Program-made: the position numbers and the translations under genes
Shown: one piece after another, positions 17,301-63,342 of the stretch
Numbering within the stretch: the stretch's first letter is position 1
Layout of the letters: every line of letters begins with the position of its first letter
The notes under the pieces: generated by a model
The model's database searches: none
The model's input: only the letters and a program-made list of their open reading frames with translations
What the model was told of the DNA's origin: nothing
Source: Naegleria gruberi
Taxonomy: Eukaryota
DNA: 64,000 nucleotides
Assembly: GCA_000004985.1 (NCBI GenBank)
Contig: GG738913.1
Strand: one strand, 5' to 3'

Positions 17301-18732
17301 TTCCAGATTCCAATTCCTTAAACATTTGTACAAGCTCTTGTCCGATAATAGATCAGATATGGCAAAGAATGCCAAGATTTTGAAAGTCCTCAAATTGATA
17401 ACCTCTCAGAAAATATTCTTTTCAATTATTGCAATCTTTGCCGTGTTGAATGTTTGTTTCTGGACTCTTTGGGTTGTTCTAGTAAGGACACAAGTCATTG
17501 ATGCCTCTACCTATACCTATATTGTATCATCTTGTTACATTACTTGTATTCTCTTCTTTGGAGCAGTTATTTGCATTGTAGCCATTGCTGATTGGATTAT
17601 TTCCACCAAGAAACACGTAACAGCAGGTCAGGAAAGAAAGAGAAAGACTGTCAGTTTCACCACTCTCAGCTCTGAACCACGAGAATCCATCAAGAAGCGA
17701 CTCTTCTCTCCAAAACAACTCTACGAATGGTTAATTCAAGTTGATGAACCACTCTATTTCCGATTCGAAATGCTCCTCTACATGATTTGCTTTGTCTTCC
17801 AAGTGTTAAATCTTGCCATTGGCTCCTCCAGTCTTTCCTACCGATATGCTGACTTGGATTCATACAAGAAAGCACTTGCTCTCGATGGAATCTCCTTCAT
17901 CTTTGAAGTACTCTATGTGGTGAGTTACTTGTTTGTGTTTGGTGGTTTTGCTCTCTTGATTGCCATATTGTACAAGTACAAGAAGAAGAAACAACATGAT
18001 GAAGCCTCTACTTTTCTCATCAACAAATTGAATGGTGGCAACAATAACAAGGTCGACGAAGGAATCATGAGTGAGGAGATGAGGGATGTGCTAGATAAGA
18101 ACGAAGGCTATCTATTATTCGAAGCCTTCTGTGAGAAGGAATTCTCTCTAGAAAACCTCTACTTGTACTCTGACTTGAAAGCCAATGAAACCATCACCAA
18201 AGGAAGACAATTCACCAACCTAACAACCTTCATGAGATTCATCTTTAATAACTACATCCGAACAGGAAGCACCACAGAAGTGAATATACCAGCCAAGTGT
18301 AGGAATAACTTTTTACTTGTCTATAAGAATGTAGCATCAAGTAGTGAACATATGCAACAACAATTGGGAATTGCTGAGAAGGTGAGTAGGAGTGAGGTGG
18401 AAAGACTCGATAGGAATCTACAGGTGGTTATCAAGAATGATCAAGTAGCTACTTTATCAACTAAAACAACAACTACAACTTCTACTAATGAACAACAACA
18501 ACAAGAAGGAAATATCAAATCTTCATCGCCAGTAGCTGCTGTAGAAAATGTTGATCATGTGGTGGAGGGTGTTGTTTCTGCCTTTGAATTCCTCTACAAG
18601 CAAACATTGGTTAATTTGGGTGATACCTTCTCTCGATTTGTCTTTACGAGTGAATACAAGGAATATTTGGCTTCATTGGAGGCTCAGAAGGTTGTTACGG
18701 TGGAAATTATTGCTGCCTACGGAGATGTTTAA
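11359..18732 (+). CDS. Giant adhesion-GPCR-like receptor of about 2440 aa: signal peptide, about 20 NHL repeats, EGF-like Cys modules, Ser/Thr/Asn-rich stalk, GAIN/GPS motif, 7TM, C-terminal RGS domain.
   Basis: Exon 1 is 11359..11497 (MSALKQVKIAALLLNLLIISWCLNVFG signal peptide). A 45-nt intron at 11498..11542 (GTAGGT..AG) preserves phase. Exon 2 is 11543..18732. NHL motifs (YxADxxNxRIRKI) repeat throughout aa 50-950. EGF-like CxxxxxCSGNGQCV appears twice. The GPS motif is CRYWDETNKIWSDRGCQLSNIDLNAGTVECSCSHTTMFTTF. Seven hydrophobic helices follow. The RGS core is LLFEAFCEKEFSLENLYLYSDL...FIFNNYIRTGSTTEVNIPAKCR. Confidence 0.6.
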
Positions 18733-31815: not shown

Positions 31816-34351
31816 ATGTCGCAACTTGATGTCAGCTCACATAATGCAAGAGATTCGTCTATTCCACTCCGTGCTACTACTTCTACCCTTCTAAAACAAT
31901 CAACACTCGAGCAATCGTGTGAGAAAGTAAACGAAAGTTCATTAATCATTGAAACATTTCCTTCCCAACATTCTATTGGAAATCAAACACGAAAGGTTCA
32001 TTCTCCACGTTCAGATCAAACTCTTTCCGAAGAAGAAACAAATTCCATCATTTTGGAAATGAAAGAAATGGACGAAATGTTTCGAACAAACAAGAAGAAA
32101 TCGAAATTTGCACATCTTTATCAATCAAATAAGAAACAAGGTTTAAATCAATCGTTTGCCACATCAGAAAAGTTTAGTTCATCATCCCATAATGAAAATT
32201 TATGTGCATCTTGTTGTGGAACTTTACGTTGGTCAACTGTCATGATTTTGACAGCTGTCTTTTCGATAATGATACTTTTATTTGTTGCAATCATTTCCTC
32301 GATTATTGTTACGAGTTATGATGAGTTGGAAAGAGGAAATTCCAAAGCAGATATGAAAAGAGTTGTCAAAAGTTTTTATGATGAATTTGTGAATTCATTG
32401 GAGGTATGTTTGACTTTTGACAATGAGTTTTAATTGAAATTTTGGATAGATTATGCAAGCAGTTGCTGTTTGGGATGAGCCTTATAAATTATTTCAAAGA
32501 TATTATGATCCATCAGAAAATCAAACTGAACTGGCAGTTGACATGCAACTTTTTTTGGAAACTAATATTGATTCAGCTCAAATGTTGTTGGAAAAACACA
32601 ACTATGCGCTGTTCTATACCTTGAATGGAACTTTAATTGCAAGTAGAGCTCACAATCTTATAGACGAAAGTCAAGATTTATCCGATTTGTCAAAAATTCC
32701 AAAAGAATTATTGGAATTGAATGTAAATTCGAATCCTCTTTTCAGAAATGCAGATAAAGCTGGAACTTCGAATGGTGGTTTCCTTAAAGTTTCGAATGGC
32801 GTAGTAGAAAATAGCAAAATTGTCATGTTAGTGGCGAAACCAGTTTCTCCAAGTAATTTCAATGAAAATAATCCAACTTCTGGATTGATAGTGTATGGTA
32901 GACATGTCACTTATCAAACTAAGGAAAGAAATGTGTTTAGAGCTTCTACATGTGTTAGTTTTTTGAATTTTGACGAAACTTTACAAAAATATTCGAATGT
33001 TAATGCTACGAGAGTTTCAGTAACAAGTAATATTTGGGAGAATGATCAAGTTTTATCCATTGATATGTATGACGACCTCTCTAGTAGAAACTCTCTCGAT
33101 GATCGTCATTGCTATTCGAAATCTGAACTAAACTCAACTTCCCCTCGAGTTGGTTCCATTCAATTCCTTGCCGATCTCAATGGAAACCCAATCCTAGCCA
33201 TCCGATCCGATACTGAACGAAACATTTACCTCCTAGGAGTTCGTTCCTTAGCCCTCTCCATTGCCTTACTAGTTTTTTCATGTATTATTGCAGCCATTGT
33301 AATCATTGCCTTTGTGGAGAGGCGAGTATTGAGGAGAATGTTTAAACTTTCAAGGAGAATTCAGGAAATTACAGCATCACATGATCCTAAACAGAGAATT
33401 GAAATTGGTCGAGGAGGAAACTCAATTAATGCCTCGGAAAGAAATTTGATTTTTGATGAAATTGACACGACGGCGAAATATATTAATGAAATGTTGACTA
33501 GTTTGGATATTGTATTGGAAGAGCAGTTGAAGGAACAGAAAATGTTAAGAAAACTATTGGAAAGAGTGTACACAGCAGAGGAATCAGGAAGTGCCATTAT
33601 GAATGCTGTGAAAGATGTCGTGTTTATTGTGAATGGAGATAGTGGACTAGTTCTGAATGCAAATAACAAGTTTTATGAACAGATGGAGAGGAGTGTGATG
33701 GAAGTGGAGGCAAAGGATCAAGTTTATGTTTCGAATTTGTTTTTGGAAATGAAATCACTCGAAGCCAAATTTCAGAATAATTTGAGAACTGCCTTACTCT
33801 CCCTTAATGATGGAAAATCGCATCTTTTCAGAGGAATGACTCCATCTGGTAAAATTATTAGATACAATGTATTCATTTCCAAAACAAAAGTCATGCAAAA
33901 TAACGAGAAGGTCATTTCATTCCTATTTATGGCAAAGAAGGACGATTCACTTTCTTTAGGAATTGACCAAGAAATCATTAATGAAAAATTTGAGAAAATG
34001 ATTAATAATACGAAAAAGAGAAGAAAATTCCAGAAATTCTGCTCAGAAAAAGGTCAACTCTACAATTTCAAGTTTATTAGAGAAGTAAGGGATTACAAAA
34101 CAACGGAACTTCCAATTGACCGAGCAAGGAAACAATCTGAAATTTGTTCCAACTTTTTGAGGAAAGATTCTCCATTCCCATTGAATATTGGAGCAATTGA
34201 TTTGATTAAGGGAGAAATTGAAAAGATTCTAAAAGAAGAAACACCTCAAATTTCCTTATTTGATGGATTGAATGATATTTTGGAAAGTATTTTGAAATCA
34301 GAAGTTTTTACACTTTACAAAATTCAAAAATCAAATCTTCTCTACACATAA
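31816..34351 (+). CDS. Two-TM sensor-type signalling protein: cytoplasmic N-terminus, TM1, extracellular sensor domain of about 270 aa, TM2, PAS-like segment, C-terminal RGS domain.
   Basis: Exon 1 is 31816..32403. A 46-nt intron at 32404..32449 (GTATGT..TAG) preserves phase. Exon 2 is 32450..34351. TM helices: VMILTAVFSIMILLFVAIISSIIV and YLLGVRSLALSIALLVFSCIIAAIVIIAFV. The RGS-like C-terminus is FQKFCSEKGQLYNFKFIREVRDYK...ICSNFLRKDSPFPLNIGAIDLIKGEIEK...LFDGLNDILESILKSEVFTLY. Confidence 0.5.
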
Positions 34352-43043: not shown

Positions 43044-44513
43044 ATGACCATAGATTCGACTTGGTCCCAACTCGTTGATATGTTGATCAAGGATTATTAT
43101 TCAACATCATCATACGGAACATTTTCATCTATACTACACAACAGTGTTGGTGGTCAGAATCATCATACGGATCAAAATATAGAAGAATATGCATCGACAA
43201 GAACTTCATGGTTATTATCATCACTATTTGGAAGTTTGTCTTTTGATACCAATAATAATAATTATGTAAATTATAATAATGATGGAGAAATGTATAATAA
43301 TAATGGTGGATATTCTATTTTACAATCAGTGTCGAATACTACAGCTACACAGACAGTCTCAGCTATTTTGGATCATTTTCCTCCGTGGATGTGTCTTGTT
43401 ACCTTTACTTTGATTGTTGTCTTTTTCATTATTTGTTGCATACAAACCTATAGGATGAGTAGAAGGAAGGGAGGATCATTCGTATTGGGTAGAATTTCAC
43501 TCAAGAATATTAAGAGAATTCTCTTTTGTTGTTGTTACGATTCACAATCACAAGTTTTATCGTGGAATATTCCTCTTCAATTTTCCTTTCAATTTCTCAT
43601 TACTTTTGGGATTAGGACATTACATGCCTTCTTTTTGCAATACTTTTTCGAGAGTACTTATGAACATACTTGTTTCCAATATCTTGACAGTACTACTGGA
43701 AGATTGAGAAGAACTTGTCCATTGATTAATGTTGTGGACTCGGCAACTTCTATCATGATTAAATCAACTTACATTTTGTTGGCATTGTTTTGGGCAGAGT
43801 TGGCCTATAATGCCTCCTTCTATTACAAACCAACAAATTGTAAGAGAATGGAAAGAATTACTAGAAGACTATATTGGGCATTCATTGGATTGTACTATTT
43901 CTGTGTGAGTTGTGGATTTATTGGATTGACATTGACTAGAACTAATCCTTCCTATTTCCTTGTAGCTATTATTCTTGTATTTGATATTAGTATTCCAATA
44001 TTATTTATTGCATTCACATTTATATTGAGAGGACTTACACACAAAGTTTCTCTTCCTGTAATTATATCAAGACACTTGAAGAGAGTGTCAATTATCAGTT
44101 TAATATTGGGATTGTATCTTGGAATATTGCCAATTGTGAGAATTATTAACATGGTATTGAAGAATTTTGTTTATGCTTCAAGTGGATACAATGCTACATC
44201 CTCCATTTTGGAAGTTATCATACAGGCACTCTTCCTCTACTTGCCATCTATTGTAATTTTTGGAATTGTTGTCGCTCCAACAAGTATCAGTTTCCTTCAT
44301 GCAAATGTTGTTGATAGAAATATTAAGGCCAATAATTGGAAATCCAAATGGAAAGCCAAACAAGCTCTAACAAGAGGAGAGGATGGATTCTACACGAGTA
44401 ATGAAAATGATTATATCAGAACAGGACTCGATGGTGTAACGTTGGGTAATTTCGATTACAAGGAAATTAGTTTGGAAGAAGATTCACGAGCTGTTATTGG
44501 TGGTGAATACTAA
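43044..44513 (+). CDS. Seven-TM membrane protein of 489 aa, GPCR-like topology, family unknown.
   Basis: Seven well-spaced hydrophobic helices after an N/Y-rich N-terminal region of about 110 aa. No motif recognised. Confidence 0.4.
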   Translation: MTIDSTWSQLVDMLIKDYYSTSSYGTFSSILHNSVGGQNHHTDQNIEEYASTRTSWLLSSLFGSLSFDTNNNNYVNYNNDGEMYNNNGGYSILQSVSNTTATQTVSAILDHFPPWMCLVTFTLIVVFFIICCIQTYRMSRRKGGSFVLGRISLKNIKRILFCCCYDSQSQVLSWNIPLQFSFQFLITFGIRTLHAFFLQYFFESTYEHTCFQYLDSTTGRLRRTCPLINVVDSATSIMIKSTYILLALFWAELAYNASFYYKPTNCKRMERITRRLYWAFIGLYYFCVSCGFIGLTLTRTNPSYFLVAIILVFDISIPILFIAFTFILRGLTHKVSLPVIISRHLKRVSIISLILGLYLGILPIVRIINMVLKNFVYASSGYNATSSILEVIIQALFLYLPSIVIFGIVVAPTSISFLHANVVDRNIKANNWKSKWKAKQALTRGEDGFYTSNENDYIRTGLDGVTLGNFDYKEISLEEDSRAVIGGEY

Positions 44514-44931: not shown

Positions 44932-47253
44932 ATGTCAATAACAACACAACATTTCGAAAATTTTAACAATAACAACCACTCCTCACAAACCAATGTGCAA
45001 AACACTGCTTCTAGTACCTCAACAAGTGGCAGCAGTCCAAGAAATAACTCTCACAGAATTAATAGACAATCATTAGAATCTAGATGGAGACTCCGAGAAC
45101 GTTCTAGAAGATATTCAGTTGCCTTGTCAACTAATAGTGGTGGAAGTGCTAGTCCTCCATCAACTTCAACAACTTCAACCTCTGCAGCCAATAATAATAA
45201 CAATTCGAATAATGATTCGTTTGTTTCTTCTCAAAGTTTTGGATCCAATGAAGAAACACAGCCACAACAGCAACAACAATCAACACCAAGCTCTAGAAGT
45301 TCCTCACTCTTTGATGCTTCCCAAATTCAGAAAAACATTAAAAAGAGAGGCAGTAGTTTGGGAGCTAATTTCATTTCTGGTCGAGATAACAAGACGAATA
45401 GTGTTGATGGAGTGGTTTTTAATGGAACTCAGAGAGATACCTCTCTGTCACTTGCAGTAATGGATTCCTCATTGGCTAATGGTCCAGTTTCAATGACCTA
45501 TGGTTCTGTTGATGCATTGAGAAATAGATTTTTGGACTTTGTGAAATCTTGTGGAAGCCAATCAAAACATTTGAAGAATCCACAATTGGATGAAGAGTTT
45601 GAGGTTAAATTATTGTTTATGGACTATTTCTATGATGGAAGTACTAGAAAACCATCAAAATTATTGAAAGATGTGCCAACTGTTTTGACCTTGTTGGATG
45701 TTTACTGTCATCATTTGGTTTTTCATTTTGATGATTGGCATTCACTTCCAGAAAGTGAAGATGAATATCCATATTTCAAACATATTGTGGAAACAGTCAT
45801 TCCTGATAAGGAAAAGTTCAAATGGATGAATCATTCGAGATTTGAACAATTTTTAATTGAAAAGTATCAAGATGCCATCTCTAAGGATTATCCACCACTT
45901 CGTTCTGATGAGATTTTGTTGAATCAACAAGAAACCAAGGAGAAGGAATCATCTTTTTCAACTACTACTGAGCAAACCAACAATTCATTGGATAATCTCC
46001 ATGCTAGACCAACCATTAGTTTATTACCTGAAAATTCTTATCAGGAAACTGAGGAATTGAGAAGAGACAGTGTTGCCAGTGATGATTCAAGCACTTCTGA
46101 TAGTAATGTAGTCATTACTGAGAATAGTTCCAACCCAATTCCAAAACCAACGCACAGAGTTGGTGTTTTGGAGGAAATTCACATGTTATGCGACATGTTC
46201 TTCTATGAATTGGAAGATTTATTTGTTCTCTATCAAGAAAAGAATCAAAACTATGTTCACAAATGGGTTCAACTTGGTTTAAAGAATGGATCGATTCCAA
46301 CCTATGTCATTGAAGTGTACCGTAAGAAATTGGAATATAACGAGAGTACGCAATCTCAATTCACAGTTGATGCCAGTGATTTTGTTTCACAACATGTCAT
46401 TGATAAGGATTGGAAGTTTTTGAGATATATGTGTAAGGAATATTCACCAGATTGGTATTGCTCTTACAAGGATATTGGAAATGTTGTGCAGTGGACCACT
46501 AAGAGAGATTACACAACCGATAATTTGAAATTGAGAAACTCCAAAATTGTTGGTTATATTAATTTGCCAATGGAGGATGTTGTGAAATCCTTCTCATTTG
46601 ATCATCATTTTTCATATGCCTTTGAGAATATTGAATTCCACAATTATCATCCAATCAATGCTAGTAATTCATTGCACAAGTATCCCTCTGCAACAGTTTC
46701 GGGTACATTCAATTTAAGTTCAGTCTTCTCAAAGAGAAGTATAGAGCAAGTTATTTCATGTAGATCAGTATTTGTGGGTAACGAATTGACTGAACACATG
46801 ATATTGTTCAAATCATGTGATTTATCACCAAACGAAAGTAGTAACTCCAAGAAGGGAAAGGTTAAATTCATGGGTCTTCGTCTCGTTTCTAAAATTGATA
46901 ATAACAGAACTAGATATTGTGAATTGAGGTCGGGAAATCTTGGGGGTGTTTTGAATTCTTCCCTAATTATTAACAATCCAATAATTAATAAGAAAGTTGT
47001 AAAAGGAGTTCATGGAGGATTAATTAATGTATTGAAACTTTTGAAGAATAATGGATTTCCATTCCCAGATGAGAAGGAGAATCACGTAGCTCGTGTTTGG
47101 ATTGATTATTGTAAACAGTATTGCAATGTTGATGTGAAATCTCTGTATGGACAATCAGCAGTAAGAACCATTGATTTATCACATAGCAAGACCAAGTACA
47201 GCAATGATGATTCCTCTTCCTCAACAACAGAAACAACATCATCCAATAAATAA
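44932..47253 (+). CDS. Member A (773 aa) of a three-gene tandem paralog family of unknown function. It has an extra Ser/Asn/Gln-rich N-terminal extension.
   Basis: The C-terminal ~500 aa align with 47677..49275 and 49493..51127. Shared motifs include YVHKWVQ vs YCKKWMQ/YCKKWLQ, ILFKSC vs FLYKSCNSDT/ILYKSCNSDT, and the C-terminal WIDYCKQYCNVD vs WRTFCEYCREYFKVD/WRTFCDYCREHYKID. Confidence 0.45.
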   Translation: MSITTQHFENFNNNNHSSQTNVQNTASSTSTSGSSPRNNSHRINRQSLESRWRLRERSRRYSVALSTNSGGSASPPSTSTTSTSAANNNNNSNNDSFVSSQSFGSNEETQPQQQQQSTPSSRSSSLFDASQIQKNIKKRGSSLGANFISGRDNKTNSVDGVVFNGTQRDTSLSLAVMDSSLANGPVSMTYGSVDALRNRFLDFVKSCGSQSKHLKNPQLDEEFEVKLLFMDYFYDGSTRKPSKLLKDVPTVLTLLDVYCHHLVFHFDDWHSLPESEDEYPYFKHIVETVIPDKEKFKWMNHSRFEQFLIEKYQDAISKDYPPLRSDEILLNQQETKEKESSFSTTTEQTNNSLDNLHARPTISLLPENSYQETEELRRDSVASDDSSTSDSNVVITENSSNPIPKPTHRVGVLEEIHMLCDMFFYELEDLFVLYQEKNQNYVHKWVQLGLKNGSIPTYVIEVYRKKLEYNESTQSQFTVDASDFVSQHVIDKDWKFLRYMCKEYSPDWYCSYKDIGNVVQWTTKRDYTTDNLKLRNSKIVGYINLPMEDVVKSFSFDHHFSYAFENIEFHNYHPINASNSLHKYPSATVSGTFNLSSVFSKRSIEQVISCRSVFVGNELTEHMILFKSCDLSPNESSNSKKGKVKFMGLRLVSKIDNNRTRYCELRSGNLGGVLNSSLIINNPIINKKVVKGVHGGLINVLKLLKNNGFPFPDEKENHVARVWIDYCKQYCNVDVKSLYGQSAVRTIDLSHSKTKYSNDDSSSSTTETTSSNK

Positions 47254-47372: not shown

Positions 47373-47443
47373 GGGGCGGTGGTGTAATGGTAACATCGCA
47401 GCCTCCAAAGCTGTGGCCGGGGGTTCGATTCCCCCTCGCCCCC
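47373..47443 (+). tRNA. tRNA-Trp (anticodon CCA).
   Basis: Cloverleaf folded by hand. Acceptor GGGGCGG/TCGCCCC. D-arm GTGT-AATGGTA-ACAT. Anticodon stem GCAGC/GCTGT with loop CTCCAAA (anticodon CCA at 47405-47407). 4-nt variable loop. T-arm GGGGG-TTCGATT-CCCCC. Discriminator C. Confidence 0.85.
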
Positions 47444-47676: not shown

Positions 47677-49275
47677 ATGACAGCAACCGCTATGACAGCT
47701 GCTGACCTACAAAAATCCAAAAAAATGTCATTTAGAAACAAGACGAATCCGCCTAAAGTATGCAAATGTCTTCCTAAAATTCCATTCGAAGTGTTGATTG
47801 GTTGTTTTCAAGAGAGTGAAAGGGTTTCGTTTCAAAGTGCTTCAAGTTTTTATTCGAATGCTTTTGGTCAAGGAAGACGAAACACCTTTTCTGGAAAGAG
47901 TTGTCTGTATCGAACTGTAGACTTACGAACAAAATTTGAAGAATATCTTTACGATAACTTGCCAATATTCGACAGTGAAGTCATTTGTCAAAAATTACAA
48001 TTTCTTGACATTTTCTGTGAGTCAATGAAAATCAAAGGAAAACCTCTCTATCACATTAGAGATGTCTTTTCACTTTGCAATACTTATCTTTATGAACTCA
48101 TTAAGGGTATTGAACAAGATGGTTCTGTCATTATCCACAACAATAGTTTGGAATATTCCTTCCTTAAACAGTTTAGTTGTGTTGTGAGTGAGAATGAAGA
48201 GTTGTTGCCAGTTTTTTCCAGTCATGAATATTTGAAGAGTTGGTTTAGTAAGAAACAGAAAGAATTGTTGGAATGGAAAGTGGACGAAACTTTTCAGCAC
48301 ACAACTGAGGAATATCAAGATGATCAACTTGGCATTTTGATCACCATGTTTGTCAATCAAATGCATGGACATTTCTTATATTTCCAAGAAAAGAATTCCA
48401 AATATTGCAAAAAATGGATGCAAGAAAACATTACAGAGCTACCGAAACATTTATTCGAATGTCTAAAAAGTGCTGCAGAAAAAACACAAAAATACAGAGA
48501 TCATCTTGCCTACAGCCACAACGATGGCTTTTCCATTCCCAAAATTATCGATGCAGATTTTGAGATTATCCACCACTTGTCGAATCTCAGAAGTTCCAGT
48601 TGGAAAATGCTTTCCATCAGCAAACTCAATGAAATTCTTTCATTTTCATCAACGGAGAATTTCACATCTTGTCCAAAAGGAAAAATTCACAAATTTGTAT
48701 ATTATGAACCTTACAATATTCTCCAGTTGACCAAAGCAATGTTATCATACAAATATGATCGTCCTTCTGAATTTTACAAACTTGGTGAGTGTCAAGAATA
48801 TCAAAAACTAGATGTCAATAATTCTTCCAAAAAGTATTCGACAGTTGTCATGCCTGTCAGTTTACAACTCAACTCTATCCTGCCAAAACGTCAAACCACA
48901 TCAATCTTTGCCACCAAAGCAAAATTCATCAATACTGAACTAGTCGAAACTACTTTCCTTTACAAATCATGCAATTCAGATACCAAGAATCCATACCTCA
49001 CACTTGGTGGATTTATCCTACAAAAAGACGATACGAATCGAACAAGAATAATCGATTCGAAAATGTATCATTTTGGAGGAATTTTACAAACTGATTTTGC
49101 GTTGAGTTTATTTGTGGCAAAATCAAGGAAAGAGTTGAAACCGAGGGTTGAGTGGATGATGGAGAAGGTGAGGGAGAAAGGTTTCGTATTGGATGAAGAG
49201 AAGGAATTGGTGTGGAGAACGTTTTGTGAATATTGTAGAGAATATTTTAAGGTGGATCCGAATGAATTGGAATAA
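47677..49275 (+). CDS. Member B (532 aa) of the tandem paralog family.
   Basis: About 45-50% identity to 49493..51127 across the full length: ...KYCKKWMQENITELPKHLFECLK / KYCKKWLQDNLPILPKHLFEDLK; TLGGFILQKDDTNRTRIIDSKMYHFGGILQTDF / TVGGFIIQKDDVDRCRIIDLKMFNMGGFLQSDF. Confidence 0.5.
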   Translation: MTATAMTAADLQKSKKMSFRNKTNPPKVCKCLPKIPFEVLIGCFQESERVSFQSASSFYSNAFGQGRRNTFSGKSCLYRTVDLRTKFEEYLYDNLPIFDSEVICQKLQFLDIFCESMKIKGKPLYHIRDVFSLCNTYLYELIKGIEQDGSVIIHNNSLEYSFLKQFSCVVSENEELLPVFSSHEYLKSWFSKKQKELLEWKVDETFQHTTEEYQDDQLGILITMFVNQMHGHFLYFQEKNSKYCKKWMQENITELPKHLFECLKSAAEKTQKYRDHLAYSHNDGFSIPKIIDADFEIIHHLSNLRSSSWKMLSISKLNEILSFSSTENFTSCPKGKIHKFVYYEPYNILQLTKAMLSYKYDRPSEFYKLGECQEYQKLDVNNSSKKYSTVVMPVSLQLNSILPKRQTTSIFATKAKFINTELVETTFLYKSCNSDTKNPYLTLGGFILQKDDTNRTRIIDSKMYHFGGILQTDFALSLFVAKSRKELKPRVEWMMEKVREKGFVLDEEKELVWRTFCEYCREYFKVDPNELE

Positions 49276-49492: not shown

Positions 49493-51127
49493 ATGAAAAA
49501 CGAAGAGAATCATTTTCAAACATTAAAAAAAAATAACTTAACAACCTATTCGAAATCCTATTCGAAAGGTCCATTAGAAATGTCGAGTGATGGTTATGAA
49601 CTGTTAACGATTCCACTTGAAGCTGTTATTGGCTTTAAAAACGTTCTCTCCAAGAAATCTTCTTCCCAAACATTAAAATCTAGCCGAAGTGTTTCGTCCG
49701 CAGCCAAGACGAAACCTACACAATCTAACGTGGAAGAAATTCGATACAAATTCGAAGAATATATTTCTTCAGGTGAATTAGAAGAATCCTCACAAATTTC
49801 CCTTCAAAAACTTCAACTTTTGGATTGGTTTTATGATCCAAAAAGGAAAAGATCAATAACTGTGAAAAATCAAGTGGAATTATTCACAACATGTAATTCG
49901 TATCTGTTCGATTTGATTAAACAGAGTGATGAGTCAGGATTGATGATTCAGGAAGATCAGAGTGTGGAGTTTCCATTTCTGTCACAATTTGATGTCATTG
50001 TGCAGGAAAATCAAAAGATTTTGCCAATTTTTTCATCACACAAATATTCGAAAGAGTGGTTTTTGAAGAAACAACAAGAATTGAAAGAGTTTCAACAGAA
50101 AAGATCATCCACCTCGACAGGAATTGATCTATCGTCTGAAGATATTGCCAGGGATTATGAGGAATTTCAAGATTATCAATTGGATATTTTGGTTGTAATG
50201 ATTATCAATCAAATGAAAGATTATTTCAGTTATTTCCATAATGAAAATGCAAAATATTGTAAAAAATGGTTGCAAGATAATTTGCCAATTCTACCAAAAC
50301 ACTTGTTTGAAGATTTAAAGATCAAACATGACAGAATTCAAAAGTTTAAAGATTTACTTTCGTATAAGGAACAAGATATGGTCTATAGCACGATACTTGA
50401 TTCAGATTTTGAATTTATTAAGCATTTATCTGAAAGTACATCCGATTGGAAACTATTCGAAAAATCTAAAATTAACTCAGTTCATGTCTTTACCTCAAAA
50501 GAGAATTACACGAGTGTTTCTGGCACAAAAACCATGAAATATGTCTATTATCATCCGTACGATATTCACAAAGCAAGTAAGGGGTTTCTCTCGTTTGATT
50601 TTGCAGAACAAGATGGCATGTTCACTTGTGGAGAATTTAGAGATTACAAACAATTGGATATTAACAATTCATCCAGAAAGTATTCAAGTGCAGTTCGTTC
50701 ATGTACAATAGATCTAGGGAAATTCTTCTCCAAACGTCATAATGAAACTGTTGTGACTTCTAAGGCCAAATTCATTGGTAATGAGCTAGTAGAAACCATT
50801 ATACTTTACAAATCATGTAACAGTGATACTACACAAAAAAACAAATTCCTAACTGTTGGTGGATTTATTATTCAGAAAGATGATGTTGACAGATGCAGAA
50901 TCATTGATTTGAAAATGTTTAACATGGGTGGTTTTTTACAGAGCGATTTCATTGTAAACTTTGGAATTAAAAATCATTTGAAACAGATGGGACCCATGGT
51001 AAGTCAAATGATGAAAGAAGTTGAGGAAAGTAATTACAAAATTGATTCAGAAAACAAACCAATTTGGAGAACATTTTGTGATTATTGTAGAGAACATTAC
51101 AAAATTGATGCTAACCTGCTTGAATAA
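49493..51127 (+). CDS. Member C (544 aa) of the tandem paralog family.
   Basis: See 47677..49275. Confidence 0.5.
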   Translation: MKNEENHFQTLKKNNLTTYSKSYSKGPLEMSSDGYELLTIPLEAVIGFKNVLSKKSSSQTLKSSRSVSSAAKTKPTQSNVEEIRYKFEEYISSGELEESSQISLQKLQLLDWFYDPKRKRSITVKNQVELFTTCNSYLFDLIKQSDESGLMIQEDQSVEFPFLSQFDVIVQENQKILPIFSSHKYSKEWFLKKQQELKEFQQKRSSTSTGIDLSSEDIARDYEEFQDYQLDILVVMIINQMKDYFSYFHNENAKYCKKWLQDNLPILPKHLFEDLKIKHDRIQKFKDLLSYKEQDMVYSTILDSDFEFIKHLSESTSDWKLFEKSKINSVHVFTSKENYTSVSGTKTMKYVYYHPYDIHKASKGFLSFDFAEQDGMFTCGEFRDYKQLDINNSSRKYSSAVRSCTIDLGKFFSKRHNETVVTSKAKFIGNELVETIILYKSCNSDTTQKNKFLTVGGFIIQKDDVDRCRIIDLKMFNMGGFLQSDFIVNFGIKNHLKQMGPMVSQMMKEVEESNYKIDSENKPIWRTFCDYCREHYKIDANLLE

Positions 51128-51663
51128 ATTGGGTAACCAATTTAATCTTTACTGAAAGCGTGACATGAAAATGATTAGTTTTTATCCTTAATTGGTTGAA
51201 TAACATTTTCATATAGTAAATTGAACATTTTGGTGAAATTGCAAATGTCAGATTTACCCTCATTCTCAATAACATCCTTCAACAATTGAATAATCACATC
51301 AAAATTATTAAATTCCTTCATTTTCTTATTGAGTTCATTCAATTTTAATTCTTAAATTTCCATTTTCCCATTTAAATATTTCAGAAATTGAAACATTACA
51401 AACAATTGCCAAAAATAATTGTGACAAAAAAGCAATACTATAATAATCATGTTCTTTTGTAAATTGAATTAATTCATTTGTTAAATTGGTGAATCTACTT
51501 TTGTGTGAATTGAATTACATGATTGATCACACTCCAAGGTATCACATCACTTGTTAATTATCTACCATCATGTCATTCCAAAAGCTATTTTAAAACTGAC
51601 ACAAAGGTCCAAAAAAAAATACAACAACAACATCTTTACACACCATTAACAAAATAGTTTCGA

Positions 51664-53149: not shown

Positions 53150-54831
53150 ATGTCCAAACTTGTCTTCAGCAGCAGCACTGATGTATCACCTCAAGAAATA
53201 ACAAGAGAAAAGAACAAAGAATCCGATGACGAGGAAATAGAAATTGAAGAAAAGTTTCAACGAAAGGAATTGTTGTCTTCATCCAATACATCTAATAGAA
53301 AAATGAGAAGAAGAGGCTCTGTGATGGTTTATGAAAGTTTTTTCTCATCAGAAAATAATATCCTCAATATTTACCCACAAGCGAAAAGTAATATCCAAGA
53401 ATATTTCAAAAATAGTGAGTTCAAGTTTGAAGAAGAAATTAGTATTACAAAATCAATTTTTGAAAAAGAAACAATGCATTTAGTTCTTGTCCCCTATTCG
53501 AAATTGAATGAATTTGATTTGAATTCATGTTCCAAAGTAATGGTTCTTGGTTTTTTAGTACTGACCAGTTTGCAAGGTTTTGTTTTCAAAATCAATAGCA
53601 AAAAGCTGCAATTTCAAAAACAGGATCCAAATACTGAAGAAGAACAAACTGACAATGATGATGAAAGAAATTCATCCAATAAGAGAAAAAGAAATATGAA
53701 AGAAAATGGATCAAAGAAAAGAAAAGTTTCAACAATCACCAAAGAAATTAATTACTCTGATAATTTGAAAGAAATACTTCAAGAATATGAAATTAATGGT
53801 AAAATTGCTACGAAAATAAGAAATGATGATAAGGTAGCTCTCTATTTTAAACTTGATAATGGGTTTTTAAAGATAATTCACTATTTTGATAATAGTTCAG
53901 AGAATGTGAAAGGCATGCAAATTATCAAATCCATTCAGCATGACAATATTAATCAGATTTTTCAATTTAAGAAACTGTCCATAACTAGCTCACAATTAGA
54001 TGAATTGTTTTTTGAAAACATTTCAGTTACAACCAAATCAGAACCAACAATATTTGATAGAGGATGGATTATCGTTGAGAATAAATTTCAACACTTCCAC
54101 ATAGGTTCCACAACAGTCAATCACTCGAACAGTATTCAATAACATTTTCACAATTTGTTGGTGATATTATTACTTTCATTATTTACCTGAACCAAAAAGA
54201 TTTGAATACCAAATTATTATGTTTTATCAAGTTAATGATGGATGCTATTGAAGCAGTTAATATATTACATGAAAATAATATTATTCATTGTGATATTTCA
54301 ATTAGAAATGTTGGCATGTTATTTACAAAACATGTCATGACATCATATGCCAAAGAAAAAAGCTCAATATTGGAAGCATTGCCAAATGTTTCAAACTGTA
54401 ATTTCATTTTGATTGATTTCAATCATTGTAAAGTGGAAGGACAAGAACAAGCAACATTGAACATTTTTCCAGAATGTAATTTTAAAAAAGAAAATATTTT
54501 CTTTCCATTTATATCAGAGGCATACTATCCTACAGATGAATTGGTTCAATTTACAAAAGAACATGATTATTATAGTATTGCTTTAGTTTTGTCACAATTA
54601 TTTTTGGCAATTGTTTGTAATGTTTCAATTTCTGAAATATTTAAATGGGAAAATGGAAATTTAAAAGAATCAGTATTGAGCGAACTCAATAAGAAAATGA
54701 AGGAATTTAATAATTTTGATGTGATTATTCAATTGTTGAAGGATGTTATTGAGAATGAGGGTAAATCTGACATTTGCAATTTCACCAAAACATTCAATTT
54801 ACTATATGAAAATGTTATTCAACCCAATTAA
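53150..54831 (+). pseudogene. Copy 1 of a protein-kinase-like gene with degenerate catalytic motifs (HCDISIRNV / LIDFNHCKV). Disrupted relative to copy 2 at 61142..62351.
   Basis: Two ORFs (53150..54142 and 54202..54831) lie in different frames. Copy 2 reads through the same region in one frame (…SEPTIFVTFSQFVGDIITFIIYLNQNDLNTKLL…). Copy 1 has an insertion of about 83 nt carrying a TAA after ...SEPTIF, plus a 1-nt indel. No GT..AG pair rescues the frame. Confidence 0.4.
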
Positions 54832-54904
54832 GGATAAAAACTAGTAGTAAAGTATACATCATTGTTGCAACAAATTTTGTTATGATATAATGTGTGAGTA
54901 TTAT

Positions 54905-56993
54905 TTATTGAATGAAACATTTCTTCTTTTCATCATCAATTTCCGAATCAAATTGTGAATCTTCATCAGCACCACCACTCTTTGATTGCTTCTTCTTCAA
55001 TCTCTTTCTATATTTTTCCATCTTTTTTTCATATTCCTCAACTTGTTTAAAGTATGAATCTGGTGGCCATTTGTTTTCAGTAACATGTTTCAGATTTTCA
55101 CCTGTCAAAAGTTCCCATTCCCTTCTTGCTTTCATTGGACCATAATTTGTAGAGATGAAATGGAGACAAAAGTTGGCCAATTGATTGGCTTCATAAGTTT
55201 GAGCTAGTAATAGTAGACCTATAATGTCAATGTCAGCTTTTTCAATTCCTTGAGCAACTGATTTGTCAATATTTTTCGAGATGAAAATTTCACACATTGA
55301 GGTCAATCCAGACATGCCATATTCGTTGGCCAAGCTCAACAATCCAACAGCATTTCTTTCATTGATGGTAGAGTGAGCAGAGTACAGATATTCGAATAGG
55401 GCGTGGAATTCACTTATTCTATTCTCATTCTCACCAATTTCACCACTCAAATCTACTTGCCTTGATGAGTGCTCTACGAAATTGCCCTCAAACATTGTTC
55501 TGAATACATCACAATTAGCAGAGAGGAATAGTTTGTGTCCCTGAAAATTCTTGGAAGAATCAGTTGTGGAAAAGACAATTTCGACATCGGAGTGAGTTTT
55601 CTTATCAAAGTACTTTTTCTTAATTTCACTACCCAATAGATCATTAAGATAGGTTTCAATACTTTCATTGAACACATCTTCCTCTCCTCTCTGGTAATTA
55701 CTGACTATATTGTCAGTGTATTCACATTCAAAGATGGTAGATGCAATCTTGACCTTATTGAGAAATTGATCTTTTTTACACCTTTCCAGCATAGTTTCCG
55801 ATCCTCCATAATATTGGATTTCCAATAGGGATTTGAAAGCCCTATGATGAATAGTGTTGGAGAGTCTGAATTTCAATATATTCGGCTCATTCTCATCAAT
55901 AGAGACAGATGAGAAACCACTCACTCTACCTCCATTAATTTTGGCACTCAATTTTTCAAATGCTTCATGTGAATAGCTATTCATTCCAGCATCTCTACAC
56001 ACCAATACGTCATCGAATAATTTTCTAATAACTTTGGAGGGAACACAAGCCAACACCAATGAATGGGCCTTAATTTCCACATCAATGTCCTTAGTGGAAT
56101 TGTAAATAACAAACTTGGTATCACAGCAAAAATCACTATCCAGAAGGTTTTTAAAACCCTTGCCATAATTTGAGCTTTCCACATAAATCCAAGGAGCTTT
56201 ACCAGCTGGAGGCATTACAGGAGGAGTTGGTTCAATATCTTCAGAGTTTCCAATCACTACCTTCTTTCTTCCTTTTTTTGAAGATTTGGACTCGTCAATT
56301 GCTTGTGAAATTGCCAAATTGAAGAGTTTATCAATATTGTACATGGTTCTAGAGCTTGTAACAATGGATCCTGAAGCAGGTGAGTTCTGTACCATTTGCT
56401 CAATCATTTCCTGAGTGATTATTGAGTCACGATCCGCATCAGAGACAAGATCACTCTTACACCCAACCAATATGATCTATTTGAATAGAAAGGGAATATT
56501 AAATGAATACATTGGTATATGGAATGGTCAACTTACTGGAATATCAGGACAGTGATGAATCAATTCTGGAATCCATTTTGATTTGACATTTGCAAATGAA
56601 GCTCGATTGACCATTGAAAAACTGAATCATTTTGTTAGAGAAATAACCACTGAAAAACATACCAAACAAAGAAGACATCAGTTCCTGGATATGAAAGAGG
56701 TCTCAATCTGTCATAATCTAGTCAATTGTCAAATTGTCACAATTATTAACAACAATTTCAACATACCTTCTTGACCAGCAGTATCCCACAATCCAACATT
56801 ATAATTTCTATTTCCATATGTCACATTAGCACTCTTCCGAAATCAATTTAACTGTCATCAAATTACTTACGTAATTGTCAAAAACTGTTGGAACATAATC
56901 TTCGGGAAATGAATTTGTGGTGGAGGCAATCAAAAGACAACTCTTTCCGACGGCGCCATCACCAACAACTACCAATTTCAAGCTATTGTCCAT
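54905..56993 (-). CDS. racA: RhoBTB-type atypical Rho GTPase (Rho GTPase domain plus two BTB domains). Three exons.
   Basis: Exon 1 is 56993..56871 ([41 protein letters not shown]). Intron 1 is 37 nt (GTAAGT..AAG). Exon 2 runs 56833 to about 56768 ([22 protein letters not shown], donor GTATGT). The last exon is 56476..54905 ([10 protein letters not shown]... then two BTB-like regions and a basic/acidic tail). The GTPase plus tandem BTB architecture is that of RhoBTB, as in Dictyostelium RacA. Confidence 0.7.
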
Positions 56994-57674
56994 TATTATG
57001 TACACGTTGATGTGAGTTTGTTATTTTTTTTTGATTTTGTTTTCAAAGTACCATTGAACAAGGAACTCTTACAAAAATTTGATTAATGATTACTTTATTC
57101 AGATTTAAGATCATAATTAAAATTCAAAAACAACTTTATTAGTAGGATAGTTTGTAAACTTCAATTTCTTCAACTTTGCATTTCAACAATCTATAAAAAA
57201 AATAGTCAACATTCTTCTACTCTAGGAGGACATGATGATTTTCGGAGTGGTTTTACATCATGAAACTACCAAACTTTCACAGCATCATCTCAACATCATC
57301 TAAATAGTAGTAATAGTAATAATTGTTTTTGGTGGATTATCATCATCATTTTGGAATTTATTTTTCATGATGGAAAATCACACGTTGATGTTTAATCATC
57401 CGATCATTCACCTACCATCATCAATGTTGTTTTACATTAAAATANNNNNNNNNNNNNNNNNNNNNNNNNNNNNNNNNNNNNNNNNNNNNNNNNNNNNNNN
57501 NNNNNNNNNNNNNNNNNNNNNNNNNNNNNNNNNNNNNNNNNNNNNNNNNNNNNNNNNNNNNNNNNNNNNNNNNNNNNNNNNNNNNNNNNNNNNNNNNNNN
57601 NNNNNNNNNNNNNNNNNNNCATCATTCTGTTTTATGCTTCTCCAATAGGAAAATGGTGGAGTGATAGGGTTTTT

Positions 57675-58999: not shown

Positions 59000-60058
59000 A
59001 TGAGATTCGTCAGAGAGCGTCTTGAAGTCGTTACCTGTTACATTCCTTTCAGTGGTGAGGCGGTTGGTGATAACACTTCTCAAACTTTCCAGAAGACTCC
59101 TGGTAAGAACCATTATCCATCCAATGCTTGCTTTAACGTTTTTTGGTATCAACAACCAACATGGACACCACCTATCTGCAAGTATCTAATAGAATATTAT
59201 GATACTCTCAAATCATTACCAAGTGCTTCGGAAGGTACTAGTGCTGTTGTTAGATTAAGTTCCACAAGAAAAACTGGTAACAACGCTTTTATTAGAAGTT
59301 CAGGCTCTGGATTTTACATTCTTCCCAACACAATTATTACAAATAGTCATGTTGAAGCTGAACTTGAGAGAATTGGTGGTAAAATAACTGCATTCAGCAA
59401 TGCATGGAACAATAGCAATTCAACAATTTTGCCTACCAGGATCAGAACCTTGCATTCTGGGAAAACTATCAAAGATTCCCAATTGGGTAATTTATTTCCG
59501 GTCACTTATAGTTGGGTTGGAAGAGATCCTATCACTACCAAAGTAGGAGACTTTGATTACTTTGATGTCACCGCAATGGACTTTACTACTGGTTCTCTTG
59601 GTAATAAGGTTTTTTTCATTCCTTCTCCAAGAATTTTGCAACCTAATGATGAAATTATTTCTCTTTCTTATCCAGGAGACAAGCATCAACAACCTCCTTA
59701 TTCTAGTAGCCTTACTTATGTTGATTGGGCTCCAAGTGAATCCTTTTTGAAGGACAATATCTTTAATGGCTACGGAAAGTTATGTGCAAGTGTTGGGACG
59801 ATTATGCACCCATACAAATTGTCAGAAAATGGATTTGTAGAAAAAGATGAAAACTTTCGTTACGATTCGTCTAATCAAGAATGTTTGGCAAGCTCTGAAT
59901 GCTTAATATATGGAAGTTCTGGTGGTGTTATGATTTCAAAATTCTCACAAGTGTATCAAATTGGAGAGTATACATTAGTTGAGTTTAATGCTATCCACAC
60001 TGGTGGAGAGTTTGTTCGATGTTCAGATTGTTTGAAAGAAAGTTCATCTGCTTACATA
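59000..60058 (+). CDS. Trypsin-like (chymotrypsin-fold, Trypsin_2-type) serine peptidase. The 3' end runs into the 60059..60108 gap.
   Basis: NAFIRSSGSGFYILPNTIITNSHV (His region) ... DFDYFDV (Asp) ... CLIYGSSGGVMISKF (GxSGG Ser motif), in the canonical His-Asp-Ser order. Confidence 0.45.
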
Positions 60059-60695
60059 NNNNNNNNNNNNNNNNNNNNNNNNNNNNNNNNNNNNNNNNNN
60101 NNNNNNNNTTCTATATCATTATAGATCATGTACATCAGGTTGGTAAAGTTTCAATAAGTGGTCCTTTTTCAAGATTTCATCCTATTCGTCATAGTTGAAG
60201 AAGTGTGATTGAGGGAAGAAATCTTTAAATATGAAAGTTAAAATAAATTTGATGTTCGATGTATACTCACCAAATGGAACATTTTCATGTCAGGATTCAA
60301 TATGTTTTGATGAGAAACTCAAAAGTTATAGTTGACCTATTTTACTTCACAACTTCCCTTTTCACTTCATACTTTTATATCTACAGACTTGAACTTTTGA
60401 AATTTCATATGAAAGTGATTATAAATGTTGTTAATGGTGATATAGACTATATAATCTCATTAAAGGATTTTGAAATTATCATTCTTCCTATAGTTTCATT
60501 TATGAAATTTTAATCTGACATTATTTACAAAGTTAATATTTTATAAATTGAAAAACTAAATATACCACGTTGTTCTACTCATCATTTCCTATCGAATGAT
60601 ATAAAATTTAATGATATTTGAATAAGTTTATAATTTTGGGCTAGGGTTTGAAGGTTGGGTTTAGAATAATTCTATTTTTAGAATTGGGTTTGGGT

Positions 60696-61091
60696 TTGGG
60701 TTTGGGTTTGGGTTTGGGTTTGGGTTTGGGTTTGGGTTTGGGTTTGGGTTTGGGTTTGGGTTTGGGTTTGGGTTTGGGTTTGGGTTTGGGTTTGGGTTTG
60801 GGTTTGGGTTTGGGTTTGGGTTTGGGTTTGGGTTTGGGTTTGGGTTTGGGTTTGGGTTTGGGTTTGGGTTTGGGTTTGGGTTTGGGTTTGGGTTTGGGTT
60901 TGGGTTTGGGTTTGGGTTTGGGTTTGGGTTTGGGTTTGGGTTTGGGTTTGGGTTTGGGTTTGGGTTTGGGTTTGGGTTTGGGTTTGGGTTTGGGTTTGGG
61001 TTTGGGTTTGGGTTTGGGTTTGGGTTTGGGTTTGGGTTTGGGTTTGGGTTTGGGTTTGGCCCTGGGTTTGGGTTTGGGTTTGGGTTTGGGT
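60696..61091. repeat. (GGGTTT)n telomere-like hexamer microsatellite of about 66 units with one variant unit. Degenerate TAGGGTTTGAAGGTTGGGTTTAG units precede it at 60638-60670. It ends in an N-gap.
   Basis: Read directly. ORFs 60641..61183 (PKPKPK...) and the first 150 aa of 60648..62351 (GLGLGL...) are translations of this repeat, not genes. Confidence 0.95.
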
Positions 61092-61141
61092 NNNNNNNNN
61101 NNNNNNNNNNNNNNNNNNNNNNNNNNNNNNNNNNNNNNNNN

Positions 61142-62351
61142 ATATTTATTCACAGTGCCAAGTATCATCAAAGAATATTTCAAAAATAGTGAATTTAGAT
61201 TTGAAGAAGAAATTAGTATTACAAAATCAACATTTGAAACTGAAACAATGCTCTTAACGCTTGTACCTTATTCGAAATTGAATGAATTTGATTTGAATTC
61301 ATGTACCAAAGTAATGGTTGTTGGTTTTTTAGTTCTGACCAGTTTACAAGGTTTTATTTTCCAAATCGATAGCAAAAAGCTGCAATTTCAAAAACAGGAT
61401 CCAAATACTGAAGAACAAACTGAAAAGCATGATGAAGAGAATTCATCCAATAAGAGAAAAAGAAATAATAGCAAAGAAACAGGATCAAAGAAAAGAAAAG
61501 TTTCAACAATCACCAAAGAAATTAATTATTCTGACAATTTGAAAGAAATACTTCAAGAATATGACATTAATGGTAAAACAGCTACGAAAATAAGAAATGA
61601 TGATAAGGTAGCTCTTTATTTTAAACTTGATAGTGGGTTTTTAAAGATAGTTCACTATTTTGATAATAGTTCAGAGAATGTGAAAGGCATGCAAAGTATC
61701 AAATCCATTCAACATGACAATATTAATCAGATTTTTCAATTCAAGAAACTCTCCATAACTATCTCACAATTAGATGAATTGTTTTTTGAAAGAATTTCAC
61801 TTACAACCAAATCAGAACCAACAATATTTGTAACATTTTCACAATTTGTTGGTGATATTATTACTTTCATTATTTACCTGAACCAAAATGATTTGAATAC
61901 CAAATTATTATGTTTTATCAAGTTAATGATGGATGCTATTGAAGCAGTTAATATATTACATGAAAATAATATTATTCATTGTGATATTTCAATTAGAAAT
62001 GTTGGCATGTTATTTACAAAACCTGTCATGACATCATATGCCAAAGAAAAAAGCTCAATATTGGAAGCATTGCCAAATGTTTCAAACTTTAATTTCATTT
62101 TGATTGATTTCAATCATTGTAAAGTGGAAGGACAAGAACAAGCTAAATGGAACATTTTTCCAGAATGTANNNNNNNNNNNNNNNNNNNNNNNNNNNNNNN
62201 NNNNNNNNNNNNNNNNNNNAATTTTGATGTGATTATTCAATTGTTGAAGGATGTTATTGAGAATGAGGGTAAATCTGACATTTGCAATTTCACCAAAACG
62301 TTCAATTTACTATATGAAAATGTCATTCAACCAATTAAGAATAAAAACTAG
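61142..62351 (+). CDS. Copy 2 of the kinase-like gene (duplicate of 53150..54831). It begins in a gap, contains an internal gap at 62170..62219, and has a continuous reading frame.
   Basis: About 90% nt identity to copy 1 over 53370..54831. Single frame through the region where copy 1 is broken. Confidence 0.45.
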
Positions 62352-62377
62352 TAAAGTTTACATCATTGTTTGAATAT

Positions 62378-63342
62378 TTATTGAATGAAACATTTCTTCT
62401 TTTCATCATCAATTTCCGAATCAAATTGTGAATCTTCATCAGCACCTCCACTCTTTGATTGCTTCTTCTTCAATCTCTTTCTATATTTTTCCATCTTTTT
62501 TTCATATTCCTCAACTTGTTTAAAGTATGAATCTGGTGGCCATTTGTTTTCAGTAACATGTTTCAGATTTTCACCTGTTAAAAGTTCCCATTCCCTTCTT
62601 GCTTTCATTGGACCATAATTTGTAGATATGAAATGGAGACAAAAGTTGGCCAATTGATTGGCTTCATAAGTTTGAGCTAGTAACAGTAGACCTATAATGT
62701 CAATGTCAGCTTTTTCAATTCCTTGAGCTACTGATTTGTCAATATTTTTCGAGATGAAAATTTCACACATTGAGGTCAATCCAGACATGCCATATTCGTT
62801 GGCCAAGCTCAACAATCCAACAGCATTTCTTTCATTGATGGTAGAGTGAGCAGAGTACAGATATTCGAATAGGGCATGGAATTCACTTATTCTATTCTCA
62901 TTCTCACCAATTTCACCACTCAAATCTACTTGCCTTGATGAGTGCTCTACGAAATTGCCCTCAAACATTGTTCTGAATACATCACAATTAGCAGAGAGGA
63001 ATAGTTTGTGTCCCTGAAAATTCTTGGAAGAATCAGTCGTGGAAAAGACAATTTCGACATCGGAGTGAGTTTTCTTATCAAAGTACTTTTTCTTAATTTC
63101 ACTACCCAATAGATCATTAAGATAGGTTTCAATACTTTCATTGAACACATCTTCCTCTCCTCTCTGGTAATTACTGACTATATTGTCAGTGTATTCACAT
63201 TCAAAGATGGTAGATGCAATCTTGACCTTATTGAGAAATTGATCTTTTTTACACCTTTCCAGCATAGTTTCCGATCCTCCATAATATTGGATTTCCAATA
63301 GGGATTTGAAAGCCCTATGATGAATAGTGTTGGAGAGTCTGA
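62378..63342 (-). CDS. racA: Copy 2 of the last racA (RhoBTB) exon. About 99% identical to 54905..55870. Truncated by the terminal N-run at 63343..64000.
   Basis: Near-identical sequence. For example, 62385..62618 matches 54912..55145 with one substitution. Confidence 0.55.

Follow-up and report, generated by a model that had tools for sequence, protein, structure and literature searches.

The hexamer TTTGGG has been described as the candidate telomere repeat of the heterolobosean amoeba Naegleria gruberi from the position and orientation of its arrays in the genome assembly (Fulneckova et al. 2013, Genome Biol Evol 5:468, PMC3622300), and both the motif and its assignment to this species are accordingly known since that year. 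The survey in question screened 143 genome assemblies for telomere-type minisatellites, reported a convincing terminal pattern, established in silico, for the TTTGGG arrays of N. gruberi, and called experiments necessary; it further noted that most or many genomes with terminal arrays also have internal blocks of more than 100 bp (PMC3622300). Our literature search, covering publications other than the N. gruberi genome paper, recovered no Bal31 or telomerase assay and no matching telomerase RNA template for Naegleria, and nothing relevant beyond this survey. The macronuclear telomeres of the ciliate Paramecium are a random mixture of TTGGGG and TTTGGG. The presence of TTTGGG as one of two hexamers in these telomeres is also documented in recent work (bioRxiv 10.1101/2025.11.06.686955). 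A first-pass annotation of the locus described here had left TTTGGG without assignment to a known lineage, an assignment that these two precedents supply.

Telomere tracts are found between the copies of tandem Y' elements in Saccharomyces cerevisiae and of human subtelomeric duplicons. These internal tracts are short, measuring tens to about 300 bp, and in many cases degenerate, and fixed interstitial telomere tracts are usually shorter and degenerate. False tandem duplications, in which haplotypes or paralogues have been chained one after another, occur in drafts of heterozygous genomes, and the genome-wide heterozygosity of N. gruberi NEG-M is well under 1%. The draft assembly of this strain is of the Sanger era and consists of 1977 contigs in 784 scaffolds (PMC6831594), and nanopore data for N. 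gruberi also exist (PMC12695648).

Structure and orientation of the TTTGGG array

The window analysed here is a stretch of 64,000 nucleotides that forms part of a 236,320-bp record. It contains seven N runs in total, and to the right of position 57620 it is broken up into contigs of 2439, 983, 1028 and 1123 bp, about the length of Sanger reads, which are joined through runs of 50 Ns. The features in the immediate vicinity of the array are the following:

59000-60058, plus strand: gene P, the last gene before the telomere-bearing contig; no Pfam match
60059-60108: 50-N gap, a placeholder; by homology to XP_002681429.1, the final 74 codons of gene P, or at least 222 bp, must be hidden in it
60109-61091: telomere-bearing contig, 983 bp (close to the length of a single Sanger read), flanked by gaps on both sides
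60638-60662, plus strand: degenerate telomere-like tract, GGGCTA GGGTTT GAAGGTT GGGTTT, as read from the sequence
60684-61091, plus strand: (TTTGGG)n telomere-type array, with the G-rich strand running 5' to 3' rightward
61092-61141: 50-N gap directly 3' of the array, an untrustworthy join; the next contig is free of any telomere unit

The telomere-bearing contig begins with 575 bp of AT-rich non-coding DNA, which is unique within the window, and then enters the array. Tandem Repeats Finder delineated the latter as 408 bp with a period of 6, 68 copies, 98% matches and a score of 795. A regular-expression scan resolved it into 62 perfect GGGTTT units (60686-61057), a single GGCCCT variant unit (61058-61063) situated 34 nt before the contig end, and 4 more perfect units (61064-61087) followed by GGGT up to 61091, such that 1 of 67 units is a variant. 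The first-pass annotation had counted about 66 perfect units, which agrees with 62 + 4 as a number but not as an unbroken run, given the intervening GGCCCT. Likewise, the degenerate units that it had placed ahead of the array are indeed present at 60638-60662, but a 21-nt AT-rich spacer (60663-60683) lies between them and the array and the two are not contiguous.

The array has two traits of a telomerase-type terminal telomere: it is a highly pure tandem repeat of a short G/T-rich unit, and its G-rich strand, which is the plus strand, runs 5' to 3' toward the putative end, away from the unique DNA that lies on the left. As had been recognized at the outset, the array (60684-61091) runs straight into the Ns at 61092-61141. 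The contig ends inside the repeat, and the only sequenced junction of the array is the proximal one at 60683/60684, the distal side being gap. In the remaining 62.9 kb or so of the window GGGTTT is encountered 11 times and AAACCC 6 times, never in tandem, against a chance expectation of about 11 per strand calculated from the base composition (33.8% G+C); the array itself is far above the chance level.

The locus agrees with the published N. gruberi arrays in species, in hexamer and in the kind of evidence used, namely the position and orientation of an array in a draft assembly. It differs from them in that the array is not at an assembled scaffold end and is followed by a duplicated block; the published assignment is itself in silico. 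Comparison with Paramecium reveals a difference in composition, in that the array contains no GGGGTT unit at all and hence is not a G4T2/G3T3 mixture: the window has just two instances of this hexamer, at 47420 and 50581, and neither falls within the array. Furthermore, the host is a heterolobosean amoeba using the standard genetic code, as its long ORFs read through, and not a ciliate. A ciliate origin, first suspected because TTTGGG is a Paramecium unit, was rejected on the strength of these ORFs, of the closest named homologues, which are from Naegleria, and of two exact matches to N. gruberi proteins.

Rfam and tRNA scans of the window returned nothing close to the array, the only Rfam/ARAGORN match in the window being a tRNA-Trp (CCA) at 47373-47443. 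Two ORFs that overlap the array, at 60641-61183 (minus strand) and 60648-62351 (plus strand), were rejected as artefacts that come from reading the repeat and the runs of Ns as codons.

TTTGGG arrays in environmental contigs

Metagenome contigs were scanned for eight pure units, (GGGTTT)8, and 120 loci were obtained. On AT-rich contigs (less than 40% G+C), the G-rich strand points outward in 25 of the 26 pure (TTTGGG)n arrays that lie at a contig end (p = 8e-7), a bias which shows that at least one AT-rich organism with the standard code does use TTTGGG as a telomere. GC-rich contigs mostly carry internal (GGGTTT)n of 7-20 units, and the arrays at their ends display no orientation bias (10 outward versus 7 inward). 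None of the 120 loci resembles the window at the DNA or the protein level, and an exact search of the JGI metagenomes with the subtelomeric junction motif TAGGGTTTGAAGGTTGGGTTTAG gave 0 matches. The terminal arrays of the AT-rich contigs belong to one or several organisms that share the telomere hexamer of N. gruberi, and they say nothing specific about Naegleria.

The AT-rich loci that have long ORFs in the standard code and a pure (TTTGGG)n array at the end are L004, L012, L013, L019, L024, L038-L041, L050, L057, L059, L063, L069, L079, L084, L087, L088, L092, L107 (WGS set JAESGV01) and a few others.

A duplicated block on the two sides of the array

The terminal block, comprising the last 7.5-7.8 kb, is made up of a kinase-like gene (K), a RhoBTB-like gene (R), a DUF4116 gene (D) and gene P. 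Parts of this block recur after the array, and the segments concerned are:

53367-55869: copy 1, with the kinase-like gene K (plus strand) and the 3' part of the RhoBTB/RacA-like gene R (minus strand)
61142-62169: first contig of copy 2, 1028 bp, with the kinase-like K' from mid-gene; 87-98% identity to copy 1
62170-62219: 50-N gap, concealing 233 bp by homology to copy 1
62220-63342: second contig of copy 2, 1123 bp, with the 3' end of K' and the 3' part of the RhoBTB-like R' (minus strand); 96-100% identity
63343-64000: run of 658 Ns reaching the window end, probably a real, sized gap

The offset between the colinear segments 53367-55869 and 61142-63342 goes from 7775 to 7473 bp, and the two are 96.5% identical over 2148 aligned nucleotides. 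Copy 2 begins in the middle of a gene, at about codon 73 of the kinase-like ORF. When compared in successive 200-nt windows from left to right, the identities are 87, 92, 95.5, 97, 98.5, 96, 99, 98.5, 99.5, 99.5 and 100%, where the window of 96% is the one spanning intergenic indels. Over its last 148 nt, up to the point where it stops, the second contig of copy 2 matches copy 1 at 100%.

We noted that R and R', which are 99.3% identical, differ by 7 synonymous and 0 nonsynonymous changes (dS 0.040), while the 5' parts of K and K' show a dS of 0.174 and a dN of 0.068 (dN/dS about 0.4) together with two in-frame 3-bp indels. The exclusively synonymous changes in R and the in-frame indels in K rule out sequencing error as the source of these differences, which are biological variants filtered by selection. 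The RhoBTB gene of a related Naegleria strain, represented by the metagenome locus L001, is equidistant from both copies (96.4-96.6%); given this, and the 99.3% likeness of the copies in the same gene, copies 1 and 2 separated recently.

An 83-bp insertion at 54057-54139 breaks the kinase-like ORF in copy 1 only, and the ORF of K' is intact across this site; the copy 1 gene may therefore be a pseudogene. The segment was also considered as an intron, a candidate that was discarded on finding neither GT-AG boundaries nor another copy of it in the window. A third, fragmentary copy of the kinase-like gene is found at 51176-51481, just downstream of the ORF at 49493-51127, where part of the 3' end of the gene (54532-54843) recurs in inverted orientation at about 95% identity.

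L001 (ENA ERZ929261, 4520 bp) aligns with window positions 54902-56997 over the RhoBTB-like gene, at 93% nucleotide identity overall and 96.5% in the 3' part. The neighbouring gene differs in this locus and encodes a 403-aa protein predicted, by the look of its sequence, to be secreted or membrane-bound; a kinase-like fragment of about 117 bp is also present. Given this different neighbour, synteny around the RhoBTB-like gene is not conserved in L001. The best named homologues of the RhoBTB-like protein are those of Naegleria fowleri and N. lovaniensis, with 52-53% amino acid identity.

The gene P family and the continuation of the scaffold

Gene P is 97% identical to XP_002681429.1, a protein of 427 aa from another scaffold (707,703-bp record). 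The alignment runs to the contig end, and the missing C-terminus of P is encoded nowhere in the window. A partial relative with 69% identity, XP_002668564.1, is found on an 11,321-bp record. A further copy, P' (XP_002670646.1; EFC37902.1; NAEGRDRAFT_74409), of 191 aa, is annotated on the window's own 236,320-bp record and is not encoded in the window. P and P' are identical at 158 of 162 positions: the first 131 aa match and are followed by four substitutions, one of which is common to an environmental strain. The last 29 residues of P' are likewise encoded nowhere in the window, and an origin of this tail by frameshift from P was rejected. Given the four substitutions and the absence of the 29-aa tail from the window, XP_002670646.1 is not a model of the P gene seen here.

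The ORFs at 43044-44513 and 44932-47253 are exact matches to the N. gruberi proteins XP_002670641.1 (EFC37897.1, JGI 74398) and XP_002670642.1 (EFC37898.1, JGI 74399), respectively, both from the 236,320-bp record, and these matches place the window in the NEG-M draft assembly. Since GenBank and JGI identifiers rise with the coordinate (EFC37897 and EFC37898 at 43-47 kb; EFC37902 and JGI 74409 for P'), P' should lie to the right of the window. This would give the order K-R-D-P, array, K'-R'-...-P', as scaffolded, and as this second annotated copy of gene P must lie further right on the same record, the run of 658 Ns is best taken as a real gap. The P family is small and recently duplicated. 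It counts at least four loci, distributed over three scaffolds (identities of 97%, 98% and 69%), and may be subtelomeric.

The P' model departs from homology with P exactly at codon 162, and the window at 59485-59490 reads TTG and then GGTAAT, which is donor-like. The annotated model has probably been spliced over a gap to unrelated DNA and is doubtful for that reason.

Other genes in the window

Toward the left of the window a single ORF of 2385 aa (11575-18732) carries NHL/teneurin-like repeats along with EGF domains and a GPS motif, and an RGS domain at its C-terminus, an architecture resembling that of an adhesion GPCR fused to RGS. A second RGS protein, with a CHASE4 domain, is encoded at 32453-34351. 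The ORFs at 47677-49275 and 49493-51127 are tandem paralogues with 42% amino acid identity over 517 residues and contain no Pfam domain.

A probable chromosome-end telomere misplaced in the scaffold

The array is an N. gruberi telomere-type repeat in the orientation of a right-hand chromosome end, and nothing sequenced ties it to the DNA that follows. Both joins of the telomere-bearing contig are gaps of the placeholder kind and no sequence crosses either, for which reason the distrust of the join at 61092-61141 voiced in the first-pass annotation was well placed. The 50-N gaps of this region are, as the homologous copies show, placeholders and not size estimates, and the order of the contigs to the right of 57620 is set by mate pairs alone. 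The first-pass annotation had also noticed that the scaffold resumes in mid-gene within a diverged copy of upstream sequence, as the 96.5% match of 61142-63342 to 53367-55869 from about codon 73 bears out, and had proposed, as one of two options, that another contig was appended at this point. What comes after the array is more than a single contig: a second copy of the whole terminal block starts there and continues past the window. The choice is still between the two options it had entertained, namely a chromosome end with a wrongly appended sequence, or an interstitial tract marking the breakpoint of a subtelomeric duplication. Its mention of an ancient fusion found no support: with a purity of 98-100% in the array and an identity of up to 100% between the copies, the event is either recent or an artefact.

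We consider it probable that the array is a true chromosome-end telomere and that its position within the scaffold is an artefact of layout. Several observations favor a terminal array. It spans at least 408 bp, is 98-100% pure and is limited by the length of the read, as is typical of a terminal tract in Sanger data; its unit is the published TTTGGG candidate, with the G-rich strand pointing away from unique DNA; and the contig past the gap is non-telomeric, starts in mid-gene and has zero repeat units. The outward orientation of 25 of 26 terminal arrays on AT-rich environmental contigs, which shows that TTTGGG is used as a telomere elsewhere in nature, argues in the same direction. The published terminal position of TTTGGG is, on the other side, an in silico inference, and this weighs against the terminal reading.

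That the layout is at fault is suggested by the read-length contigs, by the placeholders that each hide at least 222-233 bp, and by an order derived from mate pairs whose anchors fall in near-identical copies (99.3% identity between R and R', the first 131 aa of P and P', and the paralogue of P at 97%). As in false tandem duplications, the second copy is confined to small contigs tied together by gaps (1028 + 1123 bp), one of which ends where it is 100% identical to copy 1, and the differences between the copies are true variants; the end of this contig 148 nt into the identical stretch fits an alternative contig anchored on variants. Unlike in a typical false duplication of alleles, however, divergence is high in the left part (87%, dS 0.17). 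The divergence between the copies (dS of 0.04 for R and 0.17 for the 5' portion of K) far exceeds the heterozygosity of NEG-M, which disfavors simple alleles, favors true paralogues and makes a real tandem plausible. The artefact reading is also weakened by the scaffolder links, which put copy 2 to the right of the telomere-bearing contig with a minimal gap, and by the natural occurrence of tandem subtelomeric repeats split by telomere tracts, as in the yeast Y' elements.

Under a terminal placement, the array would cap the chromosome and, as general telomere biology suggests, would be made by telomerase. One read-length contig would have captured it by extending from unique AT-rich subtelomeric DNA, about 0.8-1 kb past P, into the repeats. 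The scaffolder would then have linearised two closely related versions of the K-R-D-P block as copy 1, telomere contig and copy 2, the source of the artefact being the Sanger-era mate-pair assembly. This could have come about in more than one way, for each of which we can offer a rough estimate only. Two diverged haplotypes or paralogous chromosome ends might have been chained one after another, a tentative but reasonable proposition. It is unlikely that the tandem duplication is real and the telomere contig was set after P rather than after the near-identical P', and decidedly improbable that the telomere contig was drawn from another paralogous chromosome end.

A possible interstitial tract between tandem subtelomeric blocks

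A real interstitial telomere tract between tandem subtelomeric blocks, in the order K-R-D-P, TTTGGGn, K'-R'-..-P', is possible, though we regard it as rather doubtful. Such a tract could arise when an end that already bears a telomere gains a further terminal block and the old telomere is left inside, with break-induced replication, unequal exchange between telomere tracts or telomere capture as potential routes. The flank distal to the array is, if the scaffold order is to be relied on, a subtelomeric copy in direct orientation, which continues to a second P gene on the same record, and the orientation of the array is that expected of such a tract. The divergence of the copies points the same way: the differences bear the mark of selection (only synonymous changes in R; in-frame indels and a dN/dS of about 0.4 in K), and a dS of 0.04-0.17 suits paralogues better than alleles. 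The additional P copies elsewhere indicate that the region does duplicate, and internal blocks of more than 100 bp are present in many genomes with terminal repeats (PMC3622300).

The likeness to the yeast Y' elements and the human duplicons thus extends, as assembled, to a multi-kb terminal block repeated directly, a telomere tract in between, and a G-rich strand that points toward the end. The tract itself, however, sets the locus apart from these systems, as it is at least 408 bp long and essentially pure, and is neither short nor degenerate, a trait that is typical rather than strictly defining of interstitial tracts. Moreover, the distal junction falls in a gap and the adjacency derives from mate pairs only, so that no telomere-to-unique junction is sequenced on the distal side, where the contig carries no repeat unit. 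The telomere and copy 2 contigs are of read length and joined by placeholders, as happens when reads are split among near-identical versions; copies with full coverage in one collapsed locus should have yielded a better-assembled copy 2.

It is scarcely credible that the array is an ordinary GGGTTT microsatellite free of telomere function that happens to lie at an assembly break: GC-rich environmental contigs are rich in internal (GGGTTT)n lacking an end-orientation bias, but those have 7-20 units against 66 here, and the motif is exactly the published candidate repeat of N. gruberi, is oriented correctly for a right-hand end, has a degenerate telomere-like tract 21 nt proximal to it and has no other tandem copy in the remaining 62.9 kb.

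General considerations

In a Sanger draft with this many gaps, an internal array beside a duplicated block most likely reflects misassembly and not new biology. The immediate consequence is that, in the 236,320-bp record, the order to the right of about 57.6 kb in the window is doubtful, above all at the join 61092-61141, and should not be used. The locus nevertheless provides one probable chromosome end of N. gruberi, with its subtelomeric junction sequence pinned to a defined gene neighbourhood, and adds a concrete instance of the TTTGGG candidate telomere for Naegleria. The last genes before the array are members of a small family that duplicated recently, consisting of P, P', XP_002681429.1 and XP_002668564.1.

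A broader proposal, which we hold to be unlikely at present, is that N. gruberi chromosome ends carry tandem K-R-D-P blocks of about 7.5 kb split by long pure internal (TTTGGG)n tracts, in the manner of Y' elements. If true, it would show for the first time that Heterolobosea have Y'-like tandem subtelomeric repeats, a result of moderate interest to telomere and genome-evolution specialists that would leave the larger picture unchanged, and it would mean that recombination or break-induced replication at telomeres amplifies subtelomeric genes in this lineage.
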